Assembly (NCBI GenBank): GCA_027486675.1
Contig: JAIXOQ010000033.1
Span: 1-64,000, forward strand
DNA: 64,000 nt
Reading direction: 5' to 3'
DNA from: Pseudomonadota bacterium
GTDB lineage: Bacteria; Bdellovibrionota; UBA1018; CAIMNF01
The stretch's first letter is position 1. Every line of letters starts with the position of its first letter. Shown here piece by piece: positions 52,321 through 61,234 of the stretch. The notes under the pieces were generated by a model. The model saw only the letters and a program-made list of their open reading frames with translations, did no database searches and was not told the DNA's origin. The position numbers and the translations under genes are program-made.

Positions 52321-53223
52321 GTTCTCGATACTTCTCTTCGTTTCATGAACGAAGCTGTAAATTTGGGAATACCTACCTATTGGTCCGAACCAACATTAAT
52401 TCTAGCATCGCATGAACCGAATGCACTGCGTGTGAGAAGGTATAGTGGAGATTTTAAACTCGGTGAAATTGAACTTGTCCCTGCGTCACAGTTTTGGCAG
52501 GCGCATTACCGGGTAGATCCGCCCGTGAACGATGCGTACTTTGCCCCGCTTGCTGTGCTGGAGCGTGCGCTCGGGGATCGGGTGATGAATCCTCCCGCAC
52601 TTTTGCGAAATCAAAGTGAAAAAATCCCTCCTGAGTCGCTGAAAGAGTTCAGACCGGTCACGGTGACTCTAGGGTCTGCGAAAGACTTAAGGTTGGCTTG
52701 GGATGAACTGGTGAACATCCAGGAACTGGTGGTGAAACCCTGGGGCGAAGCCCAAAGCAAGGGCGTGCACCGCGTGAAAAAACCAAATGACTTTTCTGCA
52801 TGGGAGGCATTGGTGAATCAGGAGACCCAGGCGTTCACACGCACGGTCGTGATCCAGGAATTTTTGGATGGGATCGAGCGGGGCGAACTTCGGTCCTGGT
52901 TTATTTTTGGAAAATTCTTAGGAGCACTGCGCAAACATCCACTGCCCAATGACTTCCTGGTATCGGTCGATGCTGGCTCCCGCCTGGAGCGGTATGACGT
53001 TAAGCTCGAAGACAAGCGTGAGCTGGATGCCTTGGGAGCGGTGCTTATGGCCCAAGGCGCAGCCCTCGCTGCGATTGATTGGATCCCAGGCCCGGGGAAG
53101 AGCGGATTTTCAGGCGCAAAGATTTCGGACTACAACATCACATCGCCAGGACTGCTGGTCCAGATGGAGCAACTTCACGGAAAGAACTTTGCTGCAGAAG
53201 CGATTGGGTGGCTGCGGCGGTGA
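52276..53223 (+). CDS. glutathione synthetase-like ATP-grasp protein
   Basis: The N-terminal D..(x)..DTS..FMNEA pattern and C-terminal ATP-grasp resemble GshB. GTG at 52276 would overlap the divergent slt 5' end by 45 nt; alternative ATG at 52345. Confidence 0.5.
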   Translation: MSWLWITDEWSSLDHVLDTSLRFMNEAVNLGIPTYWSEPTLILASHEPNALRVRRYSGDFKLGEIELVPASQFWQAHYRVDPPVNDAYFAPLAVLERALGDRVMNPPALLRNQSEKIPPESLKEFRPVTVTLGSAKDLRLAWDELVNIQELVVKPWGEAQSKGVHRVKKPNDFSAWEALVNQETQAFTRTVVIQEFLDGIERGELRSWFIFGKFLGALRKHPLPNDFLVSVDAGSRLERYDVKLEDKRELDALGAVLMAQGAALAAIDWIPGPGKSGFSGAKISDYNITSPGLLVQMEQLHGKNFAAEAIGWLRR

Positions 53224-53251
53224 GGCCGCAGCCAAAACGTTAAAACAACGG

Positions 53252-53620
53252 CTACTTTTTTGCAGGAAGAGCTGCAGGCGCTTTGCACTGTCCACCGACG
53301 CTCACTAGCGGCGACACACAGCCTGACTTGATCGGGAGCGTAGTCACAGGGCGCGCTATCCCTTTCGATGGGCCTGCCGCGCCGCCATTCTGAGAGCTGG
53401 TGCTCCGAAGGACCTCGCTCTCTCCGCCACAAGCTTTCGATGCATCGGCCCAACAATTCTTTTCGGTGTCAGTCCGGCCATTGCCTTCAGTCCCATTTTT
53501 GCAGGTCCAAGAACAGGACCAACCGGTCTCATACTTGTACGCTCTGCTTTGCTCCGGAAAAAAAACAGCAGTAATCACGGTAATAAAGAGAAAGGAGTAA
53601 AACTTGTTTATCTTCTTCAT
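53252..53620 (-). CDS. small secreted cysteine-rich protein (operon gene 3)
   Basis: Signal peptide; SCSWTCKNG...NCWADASKACGGE pattern shared with the two upstream genes; ATGA overlap. Confidence 0.55.
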   Translation of the reverse strand: MKKINKFYSFLFITVITAVFFPEQSRAYKYETGWSCSWTCKNGTEGNGRTDTEKNCWADASKACGGESEVLRSTSSQNGGAAGPSKGIARPVTTLPIKSGCVSPLVSVGGQCKAPAALPAKK

Positions 53621-53910
53621 GACTTCTTCCCCTGGATGTTCTGGAATACACTCTTGGGAAGTACATTCTTGGGAATCGCTTTGCGCTCATTGCAGCTGCT
53701 TCCAGACTTCTCTTCGCAGTCGACAGTATCGCAACCACCGGTCGAATTAAAACTACCTGTAGCGCCACTGGAACAGACCCAAGTACATCGACACCCTCCC
53801 GAGTCCATCGCCATACTGCCCCAAGTCCGTTTTGCGAAAGCATCATTCATGAAGAGGGCCGTGAACATGAACGTGATCACCGTAACTTTTGAACCTTTCA
53901 AATTTTTCAT
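53617..53910 (-). CDS. small secreted cysteine-rich protein (operon gene 2)
   Basis: Signal peptide; CRCTWVCSSG...GGCDTVDCEEKSGSSC. Confidence 0.55.
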   Translation of the reverse strand: MKNLKGSKVTVITFMFTALFMNDAFAKRTWGSMAMDSGGCRCTWVCSSGATGSFNSTGGCDTVDCEEKSGSSCNERKAIPKNVLPKSVFQNIQGKKS

Positions 53911-54179
53911 TTCGAGGCCCCATTCTGCAGCACCGTAATCGCAGGCTTCGTCAAAGTAGTTCCGCCCTTAACTGCAATTTTTTCACCACAGGCATTAATT
54001 GCCGTAGTCCTGCAATTCAGTGCATTCGCCCACTCCCCAAGCTGCTGGCTTCCTGAATTGCCGTTGTCACACGTGTATGTGCAATACTTAGAATTATTCA
54101 TGTCCACTTGTTTAAGTGCAAAAGCGGGACTCACTGAAAACAACATCGCAAAAACCGAAACCATAATCATCAACTTCAT
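53907..54179 (-). CDS. small secreted cysteine-rich protein (operon gene 1)
   Basis: Signal peptide MKLMIMVSVFAMLFSVSPAFA; YCTYTCDNG...NCRTTAINACGEK. Confidence 0.55.
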   Translation of the reverse strand: MKLMIMVSVFAMLFSVSPAFALKQVDMNNSKYCTYTCDNGNSGSQQLGEWANALNCRTTAINACGEKIAVKGGTTLTKPAITVLQNGASK

Positions 54180-54344
54180 TCTGTTCCCCTTTTTCTTAGT
54201 TCTTGACCAAACTACTGGTGACTACCAAGAACACGAAAACTCCCGTCTTCCGGTCGAGCTAGTGTTGATTTTAGATTACCCTCCGCCCTAAACAAAAATC
54301 AATGCGTCATCTATGACATGCGCCATGAGGCGCTTGAGAGGTTC

Positions 54345-54385
54345 GTAAATTTACAAATAGAATCTGAGTTTCCATTTGTAAATTT
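54345..54385. repeat. perfect 13-bp inverted repeat TAAATTTACAAAT-N15-ATTTGTAAATTTA
   Basis: Read directly from the intergenic region between the Cys-rich operon and cassette copy 1. Confidence 0.5.
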
Positions 54386-54454
54386 ATAGGGAATCTCTGA
54401 TTCCGGCTGAAGACTGGCCCGCTCCTGGGTTTACAACCCTGCTTTCTGCACTGC

Positions 54455-54468
54455 CGTTTCCGGAAACG
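54455..54468 (+). promoter_or_regulatory. 14-bp perfect palindrome CGTTTCCGGAAACG upstream of cassette copy 1
   Basis: Identical palindrome recurs upstream of copy 3 (57681-57694) within a conserved ~90-bp block. Confidence 0.35.
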
Positions 54469-54515
54469 AAAACTTCCTAAGTGTTTCATGAGCCTAGCCT
54501 AGGCAACTTTCGCCA

Positions 54516-54543
54516 TTGACGAGCCCCCCCCCCAATCTAAATT
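54516..54543 (+). promoter_or_regulatory. putative promoter TTGACG-N16-TAAATT with a 10-C homopolymer in the spacer
   Basis: Conserved in all three cassette copies; C10 tract at 54524-54533. Confidence 0.4.
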
Positions 54544-54606
54544 GGAAAAGTTGCCAGGGCGGGTGGTCTGTCGGGGCGGGATAACTTTTAGGGAGATAAA
54601 ACCGAG

Positions 54607-54954
54607 ATGAAAAAGATTTTTGGACTCATGGCGTTTGGGATGGTGTTGGTTGCGGGGACTGCGGAGGCACGCAATTACGCCTGCTTTAACTGTAAAGTGG
54701 GTCAACCCTGCAAAGTGGACCTATTGGTCACTGTTACGAACTCAAATGGCACAGTTACAACCAGTACAGAGTCTATCAATGGAATCGGGGTCAGGGACGG
54801 AAGCGGCACAGCTTGTGGCGCGCGCGTAGCGACCGCCGCGCTTCCGCTTGGGAGCCGACTTGTGCCACAAACAAACTGCACCGGAGGCGCGGTAGCGGTA
54901 GCCGGTATGTGCGCTAAGGCATCAATCGCAGTCTCGGCAACACCAACAAAATAA
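54607..54954 (+). CDS. secreted cysteine-rich protein, cassette copy 1 (conserved signal peptide, variable mature domain)
   Basis: MKKIFGLMAFGMVLVAGTAEA|RNYACFNCKVGQPCK...; RBS TAGGGAGAT. Confidence 0.6.
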   Translation: MKKIFGLMAFGMVLVAGTAEARNYACFNCKVGQPCKVDLLVTVTNSNGTVTTSTESINGIGVRDGSGTACGARVATAALPLGSRLVPQTNCTGGAVAVAGMCAKASIAVSATPTK

Positions 54955-54979
54955 CCGCCCTCAATCATTCAATTGATAT

Positions 54980-55022
54980 CGGGCCCTGGGACCAGACCTT
55001 GTCTGCCCGGGGCTTCTTTTTG
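54980..55022 (+). terminator. strong rho-independent terminator (conserved with the copy 2 terminator)
   Basis: gggccctgggaccagacc/ggtctgcccggggc bulged stem + TTCTTTTT. Confidence 0.65.
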
Positions 55023-55115
55023 CGTGTGCTCGCCACACGATTTGCCTATGGTAAACTTCCAAAAATGCAGGCCTTGCTTCAGTGGAACTATCGCTCTTTT
55101 CCGCTGGGAGAAACC

Positions 55116-55382
55116 ATGAACATTCAGATGGTGAATTTCGGAGAGTTTTTAATGTCGCGCCCAGCTGGACATGTGGCAGCGCAAATCATCGTTGAGAATT
55201 TCAGACCTGCTTCCCACGACTAAGTCATTGAGCTCGACTTTCTTAACGTGAAAGCAATCGGTCCATCTTGGTTGCACGAAGTGGTCAAGGGACTGCGCGG
55301 CAAGTACCCAAACAAAATCCAAGTTTTAGATCAAGGCAATGCCTCCGTGATTGAGTCGCTCAAGTTTGTCGACCTTCGGTAG
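55116..55382 (+). pseudogene. STAS-like (DUF4325) gene inactivated by an in-frame TAA (GAA>TAA at codon 36)
   Basis: About 90% nt identity to the intact gene at 57341-57607. Upstream, 55065-55115 keeps only the first and last codons of the GHKL ATPase gene (internal deletion), producing the chimeric ORF 54999-55223. Confidence 0.65.
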
Positions 55383-55519
55383 TTACGGCCTGAGTAAGAA
55401 CCAGATCATTTGGGTTGCACGTCCAGCGCATCAAGCGCAACTTCTGTTGCACCCAAAAAGTAACAATTCTTCATCTCTAAATCTTGGTCTCACCCTGGGG
55501 TTTTTTGTGCCGAAATCAG

Positions 55520-55915
55520 TCAATCCCCGTACACATCAAACTTCAATGTAGATCGTGCGTGAAGCAGCTTCTTATCCAAAGTCCACAGCGGTACTTTGTA
55601 TTCAGCCGCAAGCGTTCCAATCAGACAGTCTAAGGTCCCCAAAGTGATGCCGTTTTTCCTGGCCCGGAAATAATTCCACGCTGCCTGCCCCCAATGACGA
55701 TCTGTGACTTCCAGAAATTCAAAACCCAGCATGTACTCCCAGAGACTATGAAAAATTTCAGGCGTCCGGGCACCCTGGCAAACTTCTACGTGTATCGGAC
55801 GCACAATGCAGATCGCTGCGTTGTTCTTGATCATACGCTTAAGTCTCATGCACTCCGGATTCTTCGGAAGTGATCCTGCAATCCAAACCGAACTATCGAC
55901 GAGCACGGGTTGCAT
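55520..55915 (-). CDS. vapC: type II toxin VapC (PIN domain)
   Basis: VLVDSSVWI N-terminal PIN motif; conserved acidic residues. Confidence 0.7.
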   Translation of the reverse strand: MQPVLVDSSVWIAGSLPKNPECMRLKRMIKNNAAICIVRPIHVEVCQGARTPEIFHSLWEYMLGFEFLEVTDRHWGQAAWNYFRARKNGITLGTLDCLIGTLAAEYKVPLWTLDKKLLHARSTLKFDVYGD

Positions 55916-56108
55916 TGTTTGACCCTTTTTTCGTCACGGCACTTGAATCAAAGAAGTCCGTCCCAAGCATCTCAAACATACCCTGCCTTCTGCTTTGAGC
56001 GATCAGCGCATCAAGCGCATTGTTCAAGGTCTCTTTGATTGAATTCGTCCCGCCTAGTTTCCGGGCCAAATTTAACTTCTCTTCATCAAGCTCAACTGAG
56101 GTCTTCAT
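55893..56108 (-). CDS. vapB: type II antitoxin VapB (ribbon-helix-helix/Rv0623-like)
   Basis: 71 aa; MKTSVELDEEKLNLARKLGG...; overlaps the vapC start. Confidence 0.6.
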   Translation of the reverse strand: MKTSVELDEEKLNLARKLGGTNSIKETLNNALDALIAQSRRQGMFEMLGTDFFDSSAVTKKGSNNATRARR

Positions 56109-56226
56109 ATATCAAATATCTCCGTATCAGATATATTGTATCACAGCAGCATGGATCGCGATTCAGCGTGAACTGGGAATTAGTTCTTTAATAAAAACAA
56201 ACACTTACGGCGCGCAATTTTCACCA

Positions 56227-56254
56227 TTGACGAACCCCCCCCCCAATCTAAATT
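56227..56254 (+). promoter_or_regulatory. putative promoter TTGACG-N16-TAAATT with C10 tract in the spacer (copy 2)
   Basis: C10 at 56235-56244. Confidence 0.4.
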
Positions 56255-56319
56255 GGAAAAGTTGCCAGGGCGGGCGGTCTGCCGGGGCGCGCTCTTAACT
56301 TTATGGAGATTTAACCGAG

Positions 56320-56649
56320 ATGATGAAGATTTTTGGGCTCATGGCGTTTGGGATGTTGGTGATGGCAGGGAATGCGGAGGCAGACGTTAAATGTGATCCT
56401 TATCAAGGTAGAGGTTTCAAGTGTAGCGGCACCCTTGCCTGCGGGAAATCATTCTTAGTGATAGAGCTACAGGGAGGTGGAGGCGGCAGTTGGCACTGCA
56501 GCGCCACTCGCGTCGGTCAAAGCCCAGACATTGTGACAGGTGGTTCACCCATTTCTTCACTCCCTCAATCAACAGTGCAGCAGCTTCCTGCCGATCTTAA
56601 GGCTAAGGTGCAAGCAGCTCAGCAAAAAGCCGCAGCACCAAAAAAGTAA
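56320..56649 (+). CDS. secreted cysteine-rich protein, cassette copy 2
   Basis: MMKIFGLMAFGMLVMAGNAEA|DVKCDPYQGRGFKCSGTLACGK...; K/A-rich C-terminal tail. Confidence 0.6.
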   Translation: MMKIFGLMAFGMLVMAGNAEADVKCDPYQGRGFKCSGTLACGKSFLVIELQGGGGGSWHCSATRVGQSPDIVTGGSPISSLPQSTVQQLPADLKAKVQAAQQKAAAPKK

Positions 56650-56675
56650 CCGCTCTTAATCGTTCGATTCATTTC

Positions 56676-56717
56676 CGGCCCCGGGACCAGACCTGGTCTG
56701 CCCGGGGCTTCTTTTTG
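56676..56717 (+). terminator. strong rho-independent terminator
   Basis: gccccgggaccagacc/ggtctgcccggggc (14 bp with 1-nt bulge) + TTCTTTTT. Confidence 0.7.
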
Positions 56718-56759
56718 CCAGTGCGACGCCACACTGAGTGTCTATGATAAACTTCAAAA

Positions 56760-57344
56760 ATGCAGGCCTTGCTTGAATGGCACTTTTCCACAAAACCTCA
56801 AACAGACAACGCCGAGGTTTCTGGAACTAGAGATGTTTTTGAAGCTCGGTCTCAAAAAGTATTTTCTGCTCTTCTAAAACATGGTTTTACCGAATCTGAT
56901 GCAAGCCTGGTCTATTCAATCATTGGAGAACTCGGCAATAACTCCTTTGACCACAATCTCGGTTTTTGGCGCGATCAGCCCGGCTGTTACTTCAGTTTTG
57001 AGTTCGATGCTTCGGGCGTAACCCTTGGACTGGCAGACCGCGGACGTGGGATCTTTAACTCGCTCAAGAGAGTCCTTCCAGAACTCCAGAGCGACCAAGA
57101 GGCAATCGAAATTGCTTTTCAAAGAGTCATCTCAGGTCGCGCCCCTGAGCAGCGTGGTAATGGACTTAAATTTGTGCGGGCGATCATCAATGGCAATCCA
57201 AAACGAGGGCTTGTAGCTCGTTCTGGCACAGGTCTACTCGCCTGTGGTGGCCATGCAAGTTGGATCGCTACGACATCGAACTCACTTTTTTCGGAACCCA
57301 CCGTAGGCGGCACAATCGCTCTTATTCGCTGGGAGAAACCATGA
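56760..57344 (+). CDS. GHKL-superfamily ATPase (HATPase_c; anti-sigma-factor/partner-switching kinase-like)
   Basis: N-box ELGNNSFDH, G1 box DRGRGI, G2 box GNGLKF; 194 aa with no sensor or transmitter domain. Confidence 0.6.
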   Translation: MQALLEWHFSTKPQTDNAEVSGTRDVFEARSQKVFSALLKHGFTESDASLVYSIIGELGNNSFDHNLGFWRDQPGCYFSFEFDASGVTLGLADRGRGIFNSLKRVLPELQSDQEAIEIAFQRVISGRAPEQRGNGLKFVRAIINGNPKRGLVARSGTGLLACGGHASWIATTSNSLFSEPTVGGTIALIRWEKP

Positions 57345-57607
57345 AAATACAGATGGTGAAATTTGGAGAGTTTTTGATGTCGCGCCCAGCGGGACATGAA
57401 GCGGCGCAAATCATCGTTGAAAATTTCAGACCCGCGTCCCACGACGAAGTGATTGAGCTCGACTTTCTGAACGTGAAAGCAATCGGCCCATCCTGGTTGC
57501 ACGAAGTGGTCAAAGGACTGCGTGGCAGTTACCCAAACCAGATCCAAGTTTTAGATCAAGGCAATGCCTCCGTGATTGAGTCACTCAAGTTTGTCGATCT
57601 TCGGTAG
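57341..57607 (+). CDS. STAS-like domain protein (DUF4325-like), translationally coupled to the upstream ATPase
   Basis: ATGA start/stop overlap; GGGAGA RBS; MKIQMVKFGEFLMSRPAGHEAAQIIVENF...IELDFLNVKAIGPSWLHEVV. Confidence 0.55.
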   Translation: MKIQMVKFGEFLMSRPAGHEAAQIIVENFRPASHDEVIELDFLNVKAIGPSWLHEVVKGLRGSYPNQIQVLDQGNASVIESLKFVDLR

Positions 57608-57680
57608 CTGCGGCCCAAGTAAACATCAGATCATTTTGGTTTCACGGCCGGCCGAGCTCGATTGAGCTCCCCAGCACTGC

Positions 57681-57694
57681 CGTTTCCGGAAACG
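57681..57694 (+). promoter_or_regulatory. 14-bp palindrome CGTTTCCGGAAACG upstream of cassette copy 3
   Basis: Second exact occurrence. Confidence 0.35.
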
Positions 57695-57741
57695 AAAATT
57701 TCCTAGGCGTTTCATGACCTTAGCTTAGGCAACTTTTGCCA

Positions 57742-57765
57742 ATGACGAGCCCCCCCATCTAAAGT
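57742..57765 (+). promoter_or_regulatory. degenerate cassette promoter (ATGACG ... TAAAGT) with C7 tract and shortened spacer
   Basis: C7 at 57750-57756; spacer is 12 nt versus 16 nt in copies 1 and 2. Confidence 0.3.
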
Positions 57766-57830
57766 GGAAAAATTGCCGAGGCGGGCGGTCTGCTTCGGCG
57801 CGGGATAATATGTAGGGAGATCATACAGAA

Positions 57831-58082
57831 ATGATGAAGATTTTTGGGCTCATGGCGTTAGGGATGGTGGTGTTGGCAGGGGCTGCGGAGGCGAAGCGAA
57901 TTTGCAGACAAGGATCTCCAGCAACTGGATGTTCGATAGAGTGCACATCCCAAAGTTCCAACGATTGTACTATTGCGTGCACTGGATCTCAGTGCCGTGT
58001 TATCAGATCGGGTGGCCCCGATTATTATGGGGAGTGCTACGGCAAAGCTGTTCAAAAGAACAACACTGCTGCTTCCAAATAA
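57831..58082 (+). CDS. secreted cysteine-rich protein, cassette copy 3 (8 Cys)
   Basis: MMKIFGLMALGMVVLAGAAEA|KRICRQGSPATGCSIECTSQSSNDCTIACTGSQC... Confidence 0.55.
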   Translation: MMKIFGLMALGMVVLAGAAEAKRICRQGSPATGCSIECTSQSSNDCTIACTGSQCRVIRSGGPDYYGECYGKAVQKNNTAASK

Positions 58083-58207
58083 ACATTAGATTATCAAATA
58101 CTACCCCTTTTGTGTGCTGCGTCCGCAGTCATCCTGAAAGGGGGCCCTCTCTCCAGTTACCGATACCCGAAACAAATTTTTCCTAACCAAGACTCAGCCC
58201 AAGAAAC

Positions 58208-58444
58208 TCACTTCACGCACTTTCCACTGGAGAGCTTCAGTCCTGCATCGCATTTACCCGAGGCGCAGGCCTGGCCGAGTGCGCACTCTGTCTTTGAGGA
58301 CGACGTGCCTACAGTAACCGGAACAGGCCTACAGTTGCCGCGATCCGGTACATAACCAGGAGGACACTTCCGGTCCGTGGTGGCCCCGAAGGAACTGGAA
58401 CAACAAACTAACCCCAAAAAAACCATGAAACCAAAAGTTCTCAT
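58208..58444 (-). CDS. small secreted cysteine-rich protein
   Basis: Signal peptide MRTFGFMVFLGLVCCSSSFG; mature region with 6 Cys. Confidence 0.5.
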   Translation of the reverse strand: MRTFGFMVFLGLVCCSSSFGATTDRKCPPGYVPDRGNCRPVPVTVGTSSSKTECALGQACASGKCDAGLKLSSGKCVK

Positions 58445-58473
58445 TGTTGCCTCCTAGATCCCTAAAACTTCAG

Positions 58474-58812
58474 TTATCTACACTGACCAGCACCTAACTT
58501 TTTCCCTGGGAGACACACACTGCCAGGCAGTGCAATCTTCCCGCGCGCCTTACAGTTAAAGTAGAAACGGCTCTGCTTACCTACGAAAGCGGTTGGCGAA
58601 CAAGCCATTGCGCCAGTCAAGTCTGCTACGTCTTCATTTCTGCTATTACAGCAGGAAAGTGCGCGAGTATTGTGTTCCGACGTAAAAAGGCACAAAACAG
58701 GCCCGCTTGTCGCATTCGGAGTCGTCATAAACTGACGTGACGCATTGTCCGACGGTATACAAGTTTGAGCACCTGCCGAAATGGATAAAAGAGCGCTAAG
58801 TAGAATGATCAT
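58474..58812 (-). CDS. small secreted cysteine-rich protein
   Basis: Signal peptide MIILLSALLSISAGAQT; 8 Cys including CC. Confidence 0.5.
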   Translation of the reverse strand: MIILLSALLSISAGAQTCIPSDNASRQFMTTPNATSGPVLCLFTSEHNTRALSCCNSRNEDVADLTGAMACSPTAFVGKQSRFYFNCKARGKIALPGSVCLPGKKLGAGQCR

Positions 58813-58898
58813 AAAAATCCCCTTCTACAAGCTTATCGACACAACGCGATAAAAATCAACGTGTCCCGACAGACACACAAAACCCTACTCGCCAAGAC

Positions 58899-60533
58899 TC
58901 AGGGAGAGGCAGGCATTATCCCCTGCCCGAAAATCACCCCACGCTGAGGACCTCGAAGCGGAAGGTCTTCCCACGAAGTGCTCGATACCAAACACTCGCC
59001 CATCAGTTTTGCGCCTGCGAGCTGAGGATCGGTGTGCTTTGGGATGATCTTCTCTTCCGTCACCTCAAACTTTGAACCCCGAAGCTTGAGGCACGACAAA
59101 CCCTTAAAACCGCGATCTAGGCAAGTCAGCATGCGTCCAAAGTCATAGGCCTGGGAACACTGCAAATCCCGTCCCAGTCGCATCTGTGAAAAAATACGTT
59201 CATCGCTATAGTTAGGGCGCTCCGCTTCACTCAAAACACTTCTGTAGTCATTTCCATGGATCAAGGCAGAACAACCCGGAAGATGTTTCGAGCTTTTCGC
59301 GCACAGATAGTCGACATCAAATAGATACTTTTTCAGCGCGCCAAGATAATGATGGATCGCCTCCACATTTTTCCGTCGCCCCCACAGATCGGAACTATGG
59401 TGCGTACTTAAGAAAGCCCCCGTGTAGTCAGCAAGAAACTGCACACGAACAATCAAATCCCGAACCCGCGAAACTTCAGCTGCGTAAAATGCGAGTGTAC
59501 GGCACGCACTTTTGATCGACTGGCGATCTGGACTTGACACTAACTCATCCTCGTCATTTTCGTAATCGAGGAGAGTATTGTATTTGACGTACTTCGCCCT
59601 GAGCGGTGGGATGACTTTACTATTTTTGATTTCTGTCTCTGCACGTTTGAGAAACGCCTGAAAGACATTAGAAAACATCTGATCCCCTGAAAAAGAAAGG
59701 GCATCAAAGGTCAAAAGTTGGGATGCATCTTCGGGTGTCGCCATAGAACTCTTGGGTCCCGACGATTCCGCCTCAGCAATAAGCACAGGGAGGTTCGTCC
59801 TCACTTGCAATTCAAGATTCGAGTCTTCGCTTGAAACTCGTTTCTTTCGATTCAGGGAATAACTCAATTTTAAGATCTTGTCAGCCTCCTCCCGAGAGAG
59901 AACTTTCCCCAGTAGTTCCCCCGTAGGATTCAACAATTTATCCAGCTCAGCAATCGCATCGACCTGCGTACCGCGTGTCTCATCCTTGCTTTGCTTTTTT
60001 CGGATCAAGAGTAGATCCAGGACGTAGCCCTCCTGGACAACTGAGAGATAGCCAAAGCCGCATTTTTGCCGAAATGAGGCGACACTTGATTTTAATTGGT
60101 CAAGGTCACTCGGGATCATTTTGTACTCTGCTTCGGAATGAACATCCCGAAATAGCTCTAATCGGATATGGCGAACTTCACTTTCATTTGACCCCAAAAT
60201 GGATCGACTTACGCCCACCTTAAGGGCATCACCGACAGCCATCCCTGAAGAGGTAGCAAGCTCAAGCTCGCTAAAAGAAGAAATTTTGGAGTTGGAATAA
60301 CGAACACTAAACTCACCCAAATTTCTTAAACTGGGTATTTCGAAGCCTACCGCATTCTGCTCAACGCAAGTGCCCGCCTTGAAGTCACCGGTATAGACAT
60401 CAGCAGCTTGCCCATTAAAGACGCTTTCCTGCATGAGACTTACGTCGAGCACATCGACGGAGGACGCGCCAAAGGCATGATTTCCTTGGAATATCGCAAC
60501 CATCAGACCACACACCCCGAAGAGCTTAAACAT
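58899..60533 (-). CDS. large hypothetical secreted protein (544 aa)
   Basis: Start taken at MFKLFGVCGLMVAIFQGNHAFGA signal peptide; no family recognised. Confidence 0.5.
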   Translation of the reverse strand: MFKLFGVCGLMVAIFQGNHAFGASSVDVLDVSLMQESVFNGQAADVYTGDFKAGTCVEQNAVGFEIPSLRNLGEFSVRYSNSKISSFSELELATSSGMAVGDALKVGVSRSILGSNESEVRHIRLELFRDVHSEAEYKMIPSDLDQLKSSVASFRQKCGFGYLSVVQEGYVLDLLLIRKKQSKDETRGTQVDAIAELDKLLNPTGELLGKVLSREEADKILKLSYSLNRKKRVSSEDSNLELQVRTNLPVLIAEAESSGPKSSMATPEDASQLLTFDALSFSGDQMFSNVFQAFLKRAETEIKNSKVIPPLRAKYVKYNTLLDYENDEDELVSSPDRQSIKSACRTLAFYAAEVSRVRDLIVRVQFLADYTGAFLSTHHSSDLWGRRKNVEAIHHYLGALKKYLFDVDYLCAKSSKHLPGCSALIHGNDYRSVLSEAERPNYSDERIFSQMRLGRDLQCSQAYDFGRMLTCLDRGFKGLSCLKLRGSKFEVTEEKIIPKHTDPQLAGAKLMGECLVSSTSWEDLPLRGPQRGVIFGQGIMPASP

Positions 60534-60580
60534 GGGACCGAATACTATAGAATTTCGATCTAAAGTACAATCCATTGAAA

Positions 60581-61234
60581 TCAAAGACTCACCCACGGGT
60601 TTGGGATGCGCGCAAAGACCGGCACAATCGCAATTTCTGTAAATCCTTGCTTGAGAAACTGTGGGGTAGAAGTCTTGGGCTGCGTCATCGCCACCTCGAC
60701 TCTGACCTGATGGACATTTGCGAGCCTGTACGACCGTGCGCGCATCAAATCCGCGTAAAGCCCCTCTTTCCTCCGTTCAGGCACCACAAAAGCACCCCGG
60801 AGGTACGCTTGATCCGCGACTTGAAAAGAACTCACCCCACCCACGATATCGCCGCCTTCTTCCACAATCAGCGTTTCGTGCCTTGAGTCATTGAGTAAAA
60901 AATACGTCGACTCTATAAGCTGATTCTTAAAATTAGGGTGGATCTGCCAAGCGCGGATTTTACTTTCAACAAAGCGAGGCACGTCTTTCACTTCAAGGAT
61001 CCGAAACCGATTCATATCGGGGCAGATCAGTTTCGCTGGATCCAGCGACCGCATCAGCGCGCGGATCTGAATCACCTCCAGCACTTTGCATTCATCTACA
61101 AGATATCGGTGTAAATCCGGATGCGAACAGGGCCAGAGATGAATCGTGAAATTTGCACTTCTGCGATCATACGCATCGATCACCGCACGAATCTCATGAA
61201 ACCGAGACGGGGGCAGACGCATTCTTGTGATCAA
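60581..61234 (-). CDS. GNAT family N-acetyltransferase-like protein
   Basis: C-terminal IVGGVSSF...AYLRGAFVVPERRKEGLYADLM acetyl-CoA-binding-like motif. Confidence 0.5.
   Translation of the reverse strand: MITRMRLPPSRFHEIRAVIDAYDRRSANFTIHLWPCSHPDLHRYLVDECKVLEVIQIRALMRSLDPAKLICPDMNRFRILEVKDVPRFVESKIRAWQIHPNFKNQLIESTYFLLNDSRHETLIVEEGGDIVGGVSSFQVADQAYLRGAFVVPERRKEGLYADLMRARSYRLANVHQVRVEVAMTQPKTSTPQFLKQGFTEIAIVPVFARIPNPWVSL

Follow-up and report, generated by a model that had tools for sequence, protein, structure and literature searches.

Introduction

To our knowledge, pairs formed by a GHKL-fold kinase and a STAS-domain protein were long known only as the partner switches of sigma factors. 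In the operons of these switches the STAS gene precedes the kinase gene, the order being spoIIAA-spoIIAB and rsbV-rsbW. In the SiaB/SiaC system of Pseudomonas aeruginosa, the SiaA phosphatase and the SiaD cyclase share one operon, and SiaC is, as far as we know, not a DUF4325 protein.

Work from 2026 showed that immune operons and a toxin are also under the control of such pairs, in CapKS and VapKSC, respectively (PMC13373217). CapK, a 368-aa protein with HTH-STAS-GHKL architecture, is activated by ssDNA and phosphorylates CapS at Ser54 (Chambers et al., EMBO J 2026, PMC13373217). The groove that senses ssDNA lies between the STAS and GHKL domains, and Asn218 is the active-site residue mutated in that study (PMC13373217). 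CapS is a STAS-wHTH repressor whose dimer dissociates on phosphorylation, thereby de-repressing the downstream immune operon; in 348 of 443 cases CapKS sits upstream of such operons (PMC13373217). In VapKSC, the kinase VapK phosphorylates VapS, a STAS domain with a C-terminal helix, and the PIN toxin VapC is released (PMC13373217). A 2017 survey of PIN domains described a subgroup of VapC proteins (PIN.4 nucleases) coupled to DUF4325 genes. In the full-text literature that we searched, DUF4325 is mentioned incidentally, with nothing relevant on pairs of a STAS-like protein and an ATPase.

Here we analyse a GHKL/STAS-like gene pair at 56760-57607 of the window, which is the whole 64,000-nucleotide stretch of DNA under study, and compare it with these systems. 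A previous reading made from the sequence alone (the sequence-only reading) had likened the pair to RsbW/RsbV and SpoIIAB/SpoIIAA.

Results

The 194-residue protein

The kinase gene (56760-57344, + strand) encodes a protein of 194 residues, which we annotate as a stand-alone GHKL-fold predicted protein kinase of the anti-sigma-factor/CapK type. As the sequence-only reading had it, the protein carries the N, G1 and G2 boxes of this fold, and no sensor, HisKA or receiver domain was found in it. The three motifs (ELGNNSFDH, DRGRGI and GNGLKF) correspond to an N box with E57, N61 and D64-H65, a G1 box with D93, G95 and G97, and a G2 box or lid spanning G133-N-G-L-K137, and all of them fall in conserved columns of an alignment of 35 homologues with 42-64% identity. 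In this alignment E57, G59, D64, H65, D93, G95, G97, G133, N134, G135, L136 and K137 are invariant, while N60/N61, N66 and the segment S125-G-R-x-P-E-x2-G133-N-G-L-K137 are invariant or nearly so.

No curated Pfam GHKL model matches the 194-residue protein above its gathering score. HATPase_c_2 reaches 17.6 bits (E 0.0039), below its cut-off of 27.4, and HATPase_c reaches 12.8 bits (E 0.16) with a cut-off of 26.4; a precomputed PF13581 match was present in one of 120 kinase homologues, among the matches listed. The GHKL assignment therefore rests on motif conservation and on the predicted structure. The AF2 model (pLDDT 93.7) displays the Bergerat alpha/beta sandwich, with two short helices preceding the GHKL core. 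Its best structural matches are SpoIIAB, RsbW and UsfX, and histidine kinases score at most 9.5. Motif conservation together with these low histidine-kinase scores leads us to predict a stand-alone GHKL protein of the serine-kinase type.

The N-terminus holds about 45 extra residues, including the invariant W7, R24 and R30. Pfam found neither an HTH nor a STAS domain in the protein. Scans of both proteins of the pair with NCBIfam and PADLOC gave nothing meaningful, the sole line being DrmA at E 0.061, which we regard as noise, and a profile of the kinase matched no PDB sequence even at E 10.

The family is large. At E <= 1e-3 it comprises 3,487 clusters of homologues (90% identity), and a search of 1.84 billion representatives clustered at 50% identity retrieved 127, 280 and 739 matches at E <= 1e-30, 1e-10 and 1e-3, respectively. 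Public sequence sources call the protein a 'hypothetical protein' or leave it unnamed.

The STAS partner

The second gene (57341-57607, + strand) encodes 88 residues with a STAS fold. Pfam DUF4325 (PF14213, 'STAS-like') matches the product at 29.6 bits with a cut-off of 23, so that the earlier assignment to this family stands, and the same model matches all 35 diverse family partners that were scanned. AF2 models the product (pLDDT 95.1) as a small beta-alpha repeat domain, after which the protein ends immediately; RsbV and SpoIIAA are its best structural matches. Partner length is 84-98 residues in nearly all loci. A word-indexed homology search with the 88-residue protein returned 20 close relatives only, and the broad set of partners was extracted from the kinase loci instead.

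Nine positions are invariant in 81 partners from many phyla: G9, L12, S14, R15, F42, P50, S51, E55 and N75. Among them, Ser51 (codon 57491-57493, + strand) follows the strand formed by residues 38-41 and immediately precedes the helix of residues 52-63, thus capping the N-terminus of the second helix, where a conserved serine or threonine is found in the STAS fold. The phosphorylated serine of SpoIIAA occupies the same topological place.

Alignment with CapK, CapS and VapS

We used hhalign to compare both proteins with the CapK and CapS sequences in the source data of PMC13373217, the CapK being that of E. roggenkampii. Ser51 and Glu55 of the 88-residue protein fall on Ser54 and Glu58 of CapS (E 3.9e-4). 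Based on its invariance and on this alignment, Ser51 is the predicted phospho-acceptor of the partner and the homologue of the proven one in CapS. The kinase alignment is weak (E 0.019); it sets E57, N61 and D64-H65 on E214, N218 and D221-H222 of CapK, and DRGRGIFNSLKR on DSGLGIATTLKR of CapK. The phosphoserine of VapS, Ser48, comes within one residue of Ser51 when aligned, and a profile of the partner had a sole, weak match among PDB sequences, 'Escherichia VapS' (9z7o_A, E 0.083).

Independently of these alignments, a tblastn search of plasmids with the window kinase matched a Cytobacillus 'ATP-binding protein'; the cores of the two kinases share 35% identity across 92 residues (BLASTP E 8e-13). 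Downstream of the Cytobacillus gene come a MarR-family gene and an operon of multiubiquitin, ThiF and DUF6527 genes (Bub-like), which fits the CapKS-Bub arrangement of PMC13373217. The alignments at Ser51 and N61 and the 35% identity of the core place our pair in one broad kinase/DUF4325 superfamily with CapKS and VapKSC.

Coupling, synteny and distribution

The ATG of the 88-residue ORF (57341-57343) overlaps the TGA of the kinase ORF (57342-57344). A Shine-Dalgarno-like GGGAGA (57331..57336, + strand) lies 5-10 nt 5' of this ATG, within the 3' end of the kinase gene. Both ORFs, their ATGA overlap and the translational coupling claimed for them were thus recovered.

A scan of one genome per species found relatives of the kinase in at least 590 genomes, and 80 of the loci were fetched. 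These come from Oligoflexia/Bdellovibrionota, Myxococcota, Elusimicrobiota, Lindowbacteria, Binatia and Nitrospirales, with many from Patescibacteria (CPR); the kinase family is found mainly in Patescibacteria, Elusimicrobiota, Bdellovibrionota and Myxococcota. Three of the 80 contigs end after the kinase gene, and in each of the other 77 a DUF4325 ORF follows directly 3' on the same strand. Going by the predicted STAS start, the overlap of the two genes is 4 nt in 50 of 81 pairs; in 80 of 81 the genes either overlap or are separated by at most 20 nt. With a family of 3,487 homologues at the 1e-3 level and a STAS gene at every testable locus, the association is far beyond chance. The two checks that the sequence-only reading had named, HMM searches and neighbourhood analysis, were therefore favourable to it: the DUF4325 model is above threshold, the STAS gene is present at all testable loci, and the GHKL assignment is held by motifs and structure.

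No conserved third gene accompanies the pair. After clustering of all flanking ORFs, no other family occurred in more than 6 of the 80 loci. In 42 of 74 loci the next gene downstream has the same orientation, and the genes 3' of the pair are mostly housekeeping: RmuC, the most frequent with 4 of 74, Hsp70, methylmalonyl-CoA mutase, a release factor, RsgA, DnaG, RuvC and others. PADLOC and Pfam revealed no enriched family, of defence genes or others, downstream in the 74 loci. Matches to 'RTasRmuC' and 'RTasDnaG-like' were rejected as defence reverse transcriptases; they are most simply housekeeping RmuC and DnaG, since the same set matches the Pfam models of these two proteins. A single relative of the kinase was found in 2.9 million viral contigs.

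We also looked for a phosphatase, a sigma factor or any other target linked to the pair, and found none in the window, the 80 loci or the 74 downstream genes. In the window there is no sigma factor gene within about 5 kb of the pair, in agreement with the earlier observation, which had also noted, correctly, that the gene order is reversed with respect to RsbW/RsbV and SpoIIAB/SpoIIAA. The lack of a conserved third gene, the mixed downstream genes and the near absence of viral relatives point to an autonomous, chromosomal two-gene module.

HTH-bearing kinases of the family

In 45 of 86 kinases the N-terminus is extended by about 60 residues that form an HTH domain. Among 25 of these kinases that were tested, the domain is an ArsR/MarR winged HTH in 17 and of the MerR type in 8-9; the Elusimicrobiota form P0116 is one HTH-fused example. 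GHKL kinases of 290-320 aa linked to DUF4325 were also seen, in L021 and L073. A separate HTH gene was looked for beside the HTH-less kinases, and none was found. The fusion of two unrelated DNA-binding domains at one position indicates that the kinase often works on DNA, and as a rule the family probably acts on transcription, through a kinase that is itself DNA-bound.

Upstream terminator and putative promoter

Upstream of the pair lies a gene (56320-56649) for a 109-aa, signal-peptide-bearing protein that contains cysteines. The intrinsic terminator of this secreted Cys-rich peptide gene (56677..56716, + strand) has a 14-bp stem followed by a U run and forms the 5' boundary of the module. 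Its hairpin (56677-56709) has a folding energy of -25.1 kcal/mol (z = -2.5), bearing out the strong terminator reported directly upstream of the pair, and the kinase ORF starts about 45 nt after it. A copy of the terminator is found at 54982-55021, in repeat D3.

A putative extended -10 box, TGaTAAACT (56745..56753, + strand), sits 6 nt 5' of the kinase ATG. In the window, in a decayed copy of the pair (see below) and in the relatives L006 and L088, the TAAACT element precedes the kinase ATG by 6-7 nt; TG stands before it in the window. No Shine-Dalgarno sequence is present before the kinase ATG. A consensus promoter scan did not call the TAAACT box, and an Rfam scan of 53000-59000 gave no match. 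The conserved TAAACT and the missing Shine-Dalgarno sequence suggest that the pair has an extended -10 promoter of its own and a leaderless or near-leaderless mRNA, rather than being transcribed by read-through from the peptide gene.

A decayed copy and the peptide cassettes

The unit of peptide gene, terminator, kinase gene and STAS gene is present twice in the window, as repeats D3, D5 and D1. In the second copy the kinase gene is reduced to a remnant (55065..55115, + strand) in which codons 1-8 run directly into the last ~10 codons, with the junction of the 530-bp internal deletion at 55084-55089. We mapped the deletion through the repeat offsets, because the left flank came out misplaced when the intact and decayed copies were aligned globally with MAFFT. 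The offset is 1695 for D3 and D5 (terminator and kinase start) and 2225 for D1 (kinase end and STAS gene), which means that 530 bp of the kinase gene were lost in the copy at 55065-55382. The STAS gene of this copy (55116..55382, + strand) is a pseudogene with 90% DNA identity to the intact gene; it carries a GAA->TAA change at codon 36 (55221-55223) and the substitution E20V, which hits a glutamate conserved at 93%. The two STAS genes differ by 16 synonymous and 6 non-synonymous codons, implying that the copy was under purifying selection until recently. The GGGAGA bases are retained in the decayed copy.

A canonical VapBC pair separates the decayed copy from the next cassette, with the PIN gene at 55520-55915 and VapB at 55893-56108, both on the - strand; its presence here is regarded as coincidental. 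The intact pair ends 66 nt before a conserved block, D4 (57674-57756), which precedes a third peptide gene.

Other neighbours flank the pair in its closest relatives. In L006 and L091 these are SpoVG and tRNA-Gln, and in L088 they are unrelated genes. In L087, L089 and L090 the neighbour is an integrase that stands at the border of a conjugative or mobilisable element; an integrase is upstream of the pair in three relatives. The association with peptide cassettes is thus specific to the genome of the window. The decayed second copy and the closeness to CapK/CapS are additions to what the sequence-only reading had noticed.

Discussion

The previous analysis leads to the proposal, to which we assign a probability of roughly 0.7, that the pair is an autonomous, translationally coupled kinase-substrate switch, where a serine kinase of the SpoIIAB/RsbW/CapK type would phosphorylate Ser51 of its STAS partner and thereby switch an interaction. 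From the observed fold, motifs, homology, synteny with coupling, and alignment of the serine, we infer the kinase activity and the acceptor role of Ser51, as well as the input and output considered below. Mechanistically, the kinase would bind the unphosphorylated STAS protein and use ATP to phosphorylate the invariant Ser51. Phosphorylation would then alter binding by the STAS protein, by the kinase or by both, as in SpoIIAA/SpoIIAB, CapS/CapK and VapS/VapK. For the HTH-less kinase of the window, the output would be a protein-protein interaction with an unlinked target. From its genomic surroundings, the module does not appear to regulate an adjacent immune operon or to have a functional tie to the secreted-peptide cassettes.

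A broader proposal, which we offer as tentative and consider somewhat doubtful as a whole, is that the family constitutes a widespread stand-alone phospho-switch, not described before, of Patescibacteria, Elusimicrobiota, Bdellovibrionota and Myxococcota. The kinase would be the output module: in about half of the members it would act on DNA by way of the fused ArsR/MarR or MerR HTH, and in the HTH-less ones by way of a protein partner. The STAS protein would serve as a phosphorylatable antagonist, and DNA would take the place of the sigma factor. Such a switch may sense a general signal, either the ATP/ADP ratio or a nucleic-acid ligand at the segment of W7, R24 and R30, and would not guard an immune operon.

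The structural matches to SpoIIAB, RsbW and UsfX on one side and to RsbV and SpoIIAA on the other, with HATPase_c_2 as the weak Pfam match, would also be expected of a classical partner switch, in which the kinase, as anti-sigma factor, sequesters a sigma factor encoded elsewhere, to be released by the STAS protein as anti-anti-sigma factor, following the RsbW/RsbV logic. We consider this unlikely: no sigma factor gene adjoins the pair in the window, no recurrent neighbour emerges across the 80 loci or the 74 downstream genes, the two genes stand in reversed order, a linked PP2C phosphatase is missing, and the HTH on half of the family kinases indicates DNA as the target rather than a sigma factor. 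Another idea is that of a GHKL ATPase or nucleotide sensor that would be modulated by STAS binding without phosphotransfer, by analogy with MlaB acting on MlaF. We give it very little weight, because the invariant serine stands exactly at the phospho-acceptor position and the nearest relatives in structure and sequence are all serine/threonine kinases.

Location invites two other explanations. The sequence-only reading had the pair riding behind the secreted Cys-rich peptide cassettes and perhaps controlling them. By analogy with CapK/CapS, which control the operon downstream of them, a local regulator could have been duplicated with its cassette and placed 5' of the promoter region of the next one, as the doubled unit and the 66-nt distance to D4 would fit. 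Nevertheless, this part of the earlier reading did not hold, and such a role seems quite improbable. Pfam shows no DNA-binding domain in either protein; the closest relatives stand beside SpoVG/tRNA-Gln, an integrase or other genes and lack such peptides; little more than half of the downstream genes share the strand of the pair, with no enriched family; and the TAAACT box suggests separate transcription. In addition, one copy of the pair has decayed while its cassette is intact. A toxin-antitoxin or anti-phage module of the VapKSC type, in which the kinase senses infection and frees a toxin held by the STAS protein, would find support in the DUF4325 antitoxins of VapKSC, coupled to PIN.4 nucleases, in the PIN/VapB pair beside the decayed copy and in the integrases 5' of the pair in three relatives. 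We regard this as highly improbable, given that PADLOC has no match, no third gene is conserved, the downstream genes are mostly housekeeping and the PIN gene of the window lies on the opposite strand with its own VapB. The 88-residue protein lacks the tail that VapS needs; moreover, relatives are almost missing from viral contigs, and the pair is common among the many Patescibacteria/CPR loci fetched.

The switch that we favour, that of a serine kinase and its STAS substrate, bears on a family that is uncurated, with no Pfam or NCBIfam model reaching threshold, and that is strictly syntenic with a STAS gene in hundreds of species, most of them uncultivated. It is frequent among uncultivated lineages such as Patescibacteria, and it comes without a linked target. 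Patescibacteria are generally regarded as organisms with small genomes and few regulators. Should the kinase phosphorylate Ser51, the pair would provide a simple and testable signalling module for organisms not yet grown, and for the HTH-fused forms the operators offer a direct route to what the family controls. For annotation purposes, 'CapK-like serine kinase' could serve as a name for the kinase, and 'STAS substrate' for its partner.

With respect to known systems, the pair is structurally closest, in both of its proteins, to SpoIIAB/SpoIIAA and RsbW/RsbV, with which it also shares the serine at the N-terminus of STAS helix 2. It differs from them in its reversed gene order and in the absence of a linked sigma factor or PP2C phosphatase, and the kinase differs from SpoIIAB and RsbW in its extra N-terminal segment and its sub-threshold match to HATPase_c_2. 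VapKSC likewise combines a GHKL kinase with a small STAS protein of the DUF4325 type; however, VapK carries an N-terminal STAS domain that our kinase lacks, the operon of the window includes no co-oriented VapC, and the partner is devoid of the C-terminal inhibitory tail of VapS. Assigning the pair to VapKSC on account of the adjacent VapBC was rejected, since the PIN gene is on the opposite strand, has its own VapB and is not conserved.

The arrangement of CapK/CapS, with a kinase gene followed directly by a STAS gene, is that of the window. Both kinases are GHKL proteins of the anti-sigma type that share the N-box pattern E-x3-N-x2-D-H and an SLKR after the G1 box, and many members of our family have, like CapK, an N-terminal HTH. 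Both partners are DUF4325-type STAS proteins, with the invariant Ser51 aligning with Ser54 of CapS. On the other hand, CapK is an HTH-STAS-GHKL protein of 368 residues, whereas the window kinase has 194 residues and no STAS domain, and its HTH-bearing relatives are HTH-GHKL proteins, also without STAS. CapS is a repressor with a C-terminal wHTH, whereas the partner described here is a bare STAS domain of 88 residues. CapKS sits 5' of a co-oriented immune or stress operon, whereas our family has no conserved neighbour. An assignment to CapKS itself was thus rejected, for want of a STAS domain in the kinase, a wHTH in the partner and a conserved downstream operon. Since the ssDNA groove of CapK needs the STAS domain that the window kinase lacks, the input signal of CapK is not transferable to it.

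Taken globally, homology, motifs and gene order make the module a distant, stripped-down relative of CapK/CapS, the closest known systems being CapK/CapS and VapKSC, and would establish it as a third, minimal architecture of the GHKL-kinase/STAS phospho-switch.

Repeated elements around the kinase/STAS pair

The intact pair, a 194-aa GHKL kinase gene (56760-57344) overlapping an 88-aa DUF4325/STAS gene (57341-57607), lies among cassettes encoding secreted Cys-rich peptides. Three such genes on the plus strand share conserved 5' regions (54448-54668, 56239-56381 and 57674-57892; repeats D2 and D4), which enclose the perfect palindrome CGTTTCCGGAAACG at about 54455-54468 and about 57681-57694, while a common terminator, contained in repeat D3, is found in two of the three. 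Judged by these repeats, the three genes look like a recently amplified cassette family, and a common operator for them is possible. Four further small ORFs with signal peptides occupy the minus strand (53252-54179 and 58208-58812). Downstream of the cassettes, a minus-strand ORF of 565 aa (58899-60596), without a match in Pfam, adjoins a GNAT acetyltransferase gene (60581-61234).

The window also holds a decayed second copy of the pair (55065-55382). Its kinase gene is missing 530 bp internally, with the junction at 55084-55089, and its STAS gene carries a nonsense codon at 55221-55223; compared with the intact STAS gene, 16 codon differences are synonymous and 6 non-synonymous.

Neighbours of the pair in relatives

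The gene immediately 5' of the kinase/STAS pair encodes a tyrosine integrase at three loci from Bdellovibrionota-like relatives (L087, 3793-4884; L089, 3-569; and L090, 3485-4639). The integrases of L087 and L090 lie at the border of a conjugative or mobilisable element, with TrbI, FtsK-like, relaxase and MobC genes. Two other relatives have a tRNA gene upstream of the pair in place of the integrase (tRNA-Gln in L091, tRNA-Asp in L001). From this gene order, a preferred integration site may adjoin the pair.

Relation to characterised kinase/STAS systems

On the Cytobacillus oceanisediminis plasmid NZ_CP085393.1 (locus L093, 53342-57178), genes for multiubiquitin, a ThiF-family E1 and DUF6527 lie downstream of two annotated as 'ATP-binding protein' and 'MarR family transcriptional regulator', making this an apparent CapK/CapS-Bub locus. 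Its kinase core resembles the window's kinase (35% identity) more than it does E. roggenkampii CapK (23%).

A second, distant pair stands beside the family pair in an Elusimicrobiota SAG (L021, 1842-3035, minus strand) and a Roizmanbacteria MAG (L073, 2220-3463, plus strand). Its first gene encodes a protein of 290-320 aa in which a STAS-like N-terminus precedes a GHKL core bearing the NSFDH motif, and the gene 3' of it a DUF4325 protein of 94-103 aa. No PIN gene was seen at these two second pairs, whose architecture is similar to that of VapK/VapS from the VapKSC system (PMC13373217).

The minus strand of the window itself encodes a VapBC toxin-antitoxin pair of canonical type at 55520-56108, made up of a 131-aa PIN protein and a 71-aa VapB and flanked by the decayed kinase/STAS pair on one side and the next peptide cassette on the other. 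A 25-nt sequence repeated in direct orientation, at 55415-55439 and at 55995-56019, brackets the PIN gene. This placement beside the decayed copy is intriguing in light of VapKSC, in which kinase and STAS genes accompany the PIN toxin VapC. In contrast to that system, however, the window's PIN and VapB genes lie on the strand opposite to the kinase/STAS pair, and the toxin has an antitoxin of its own.
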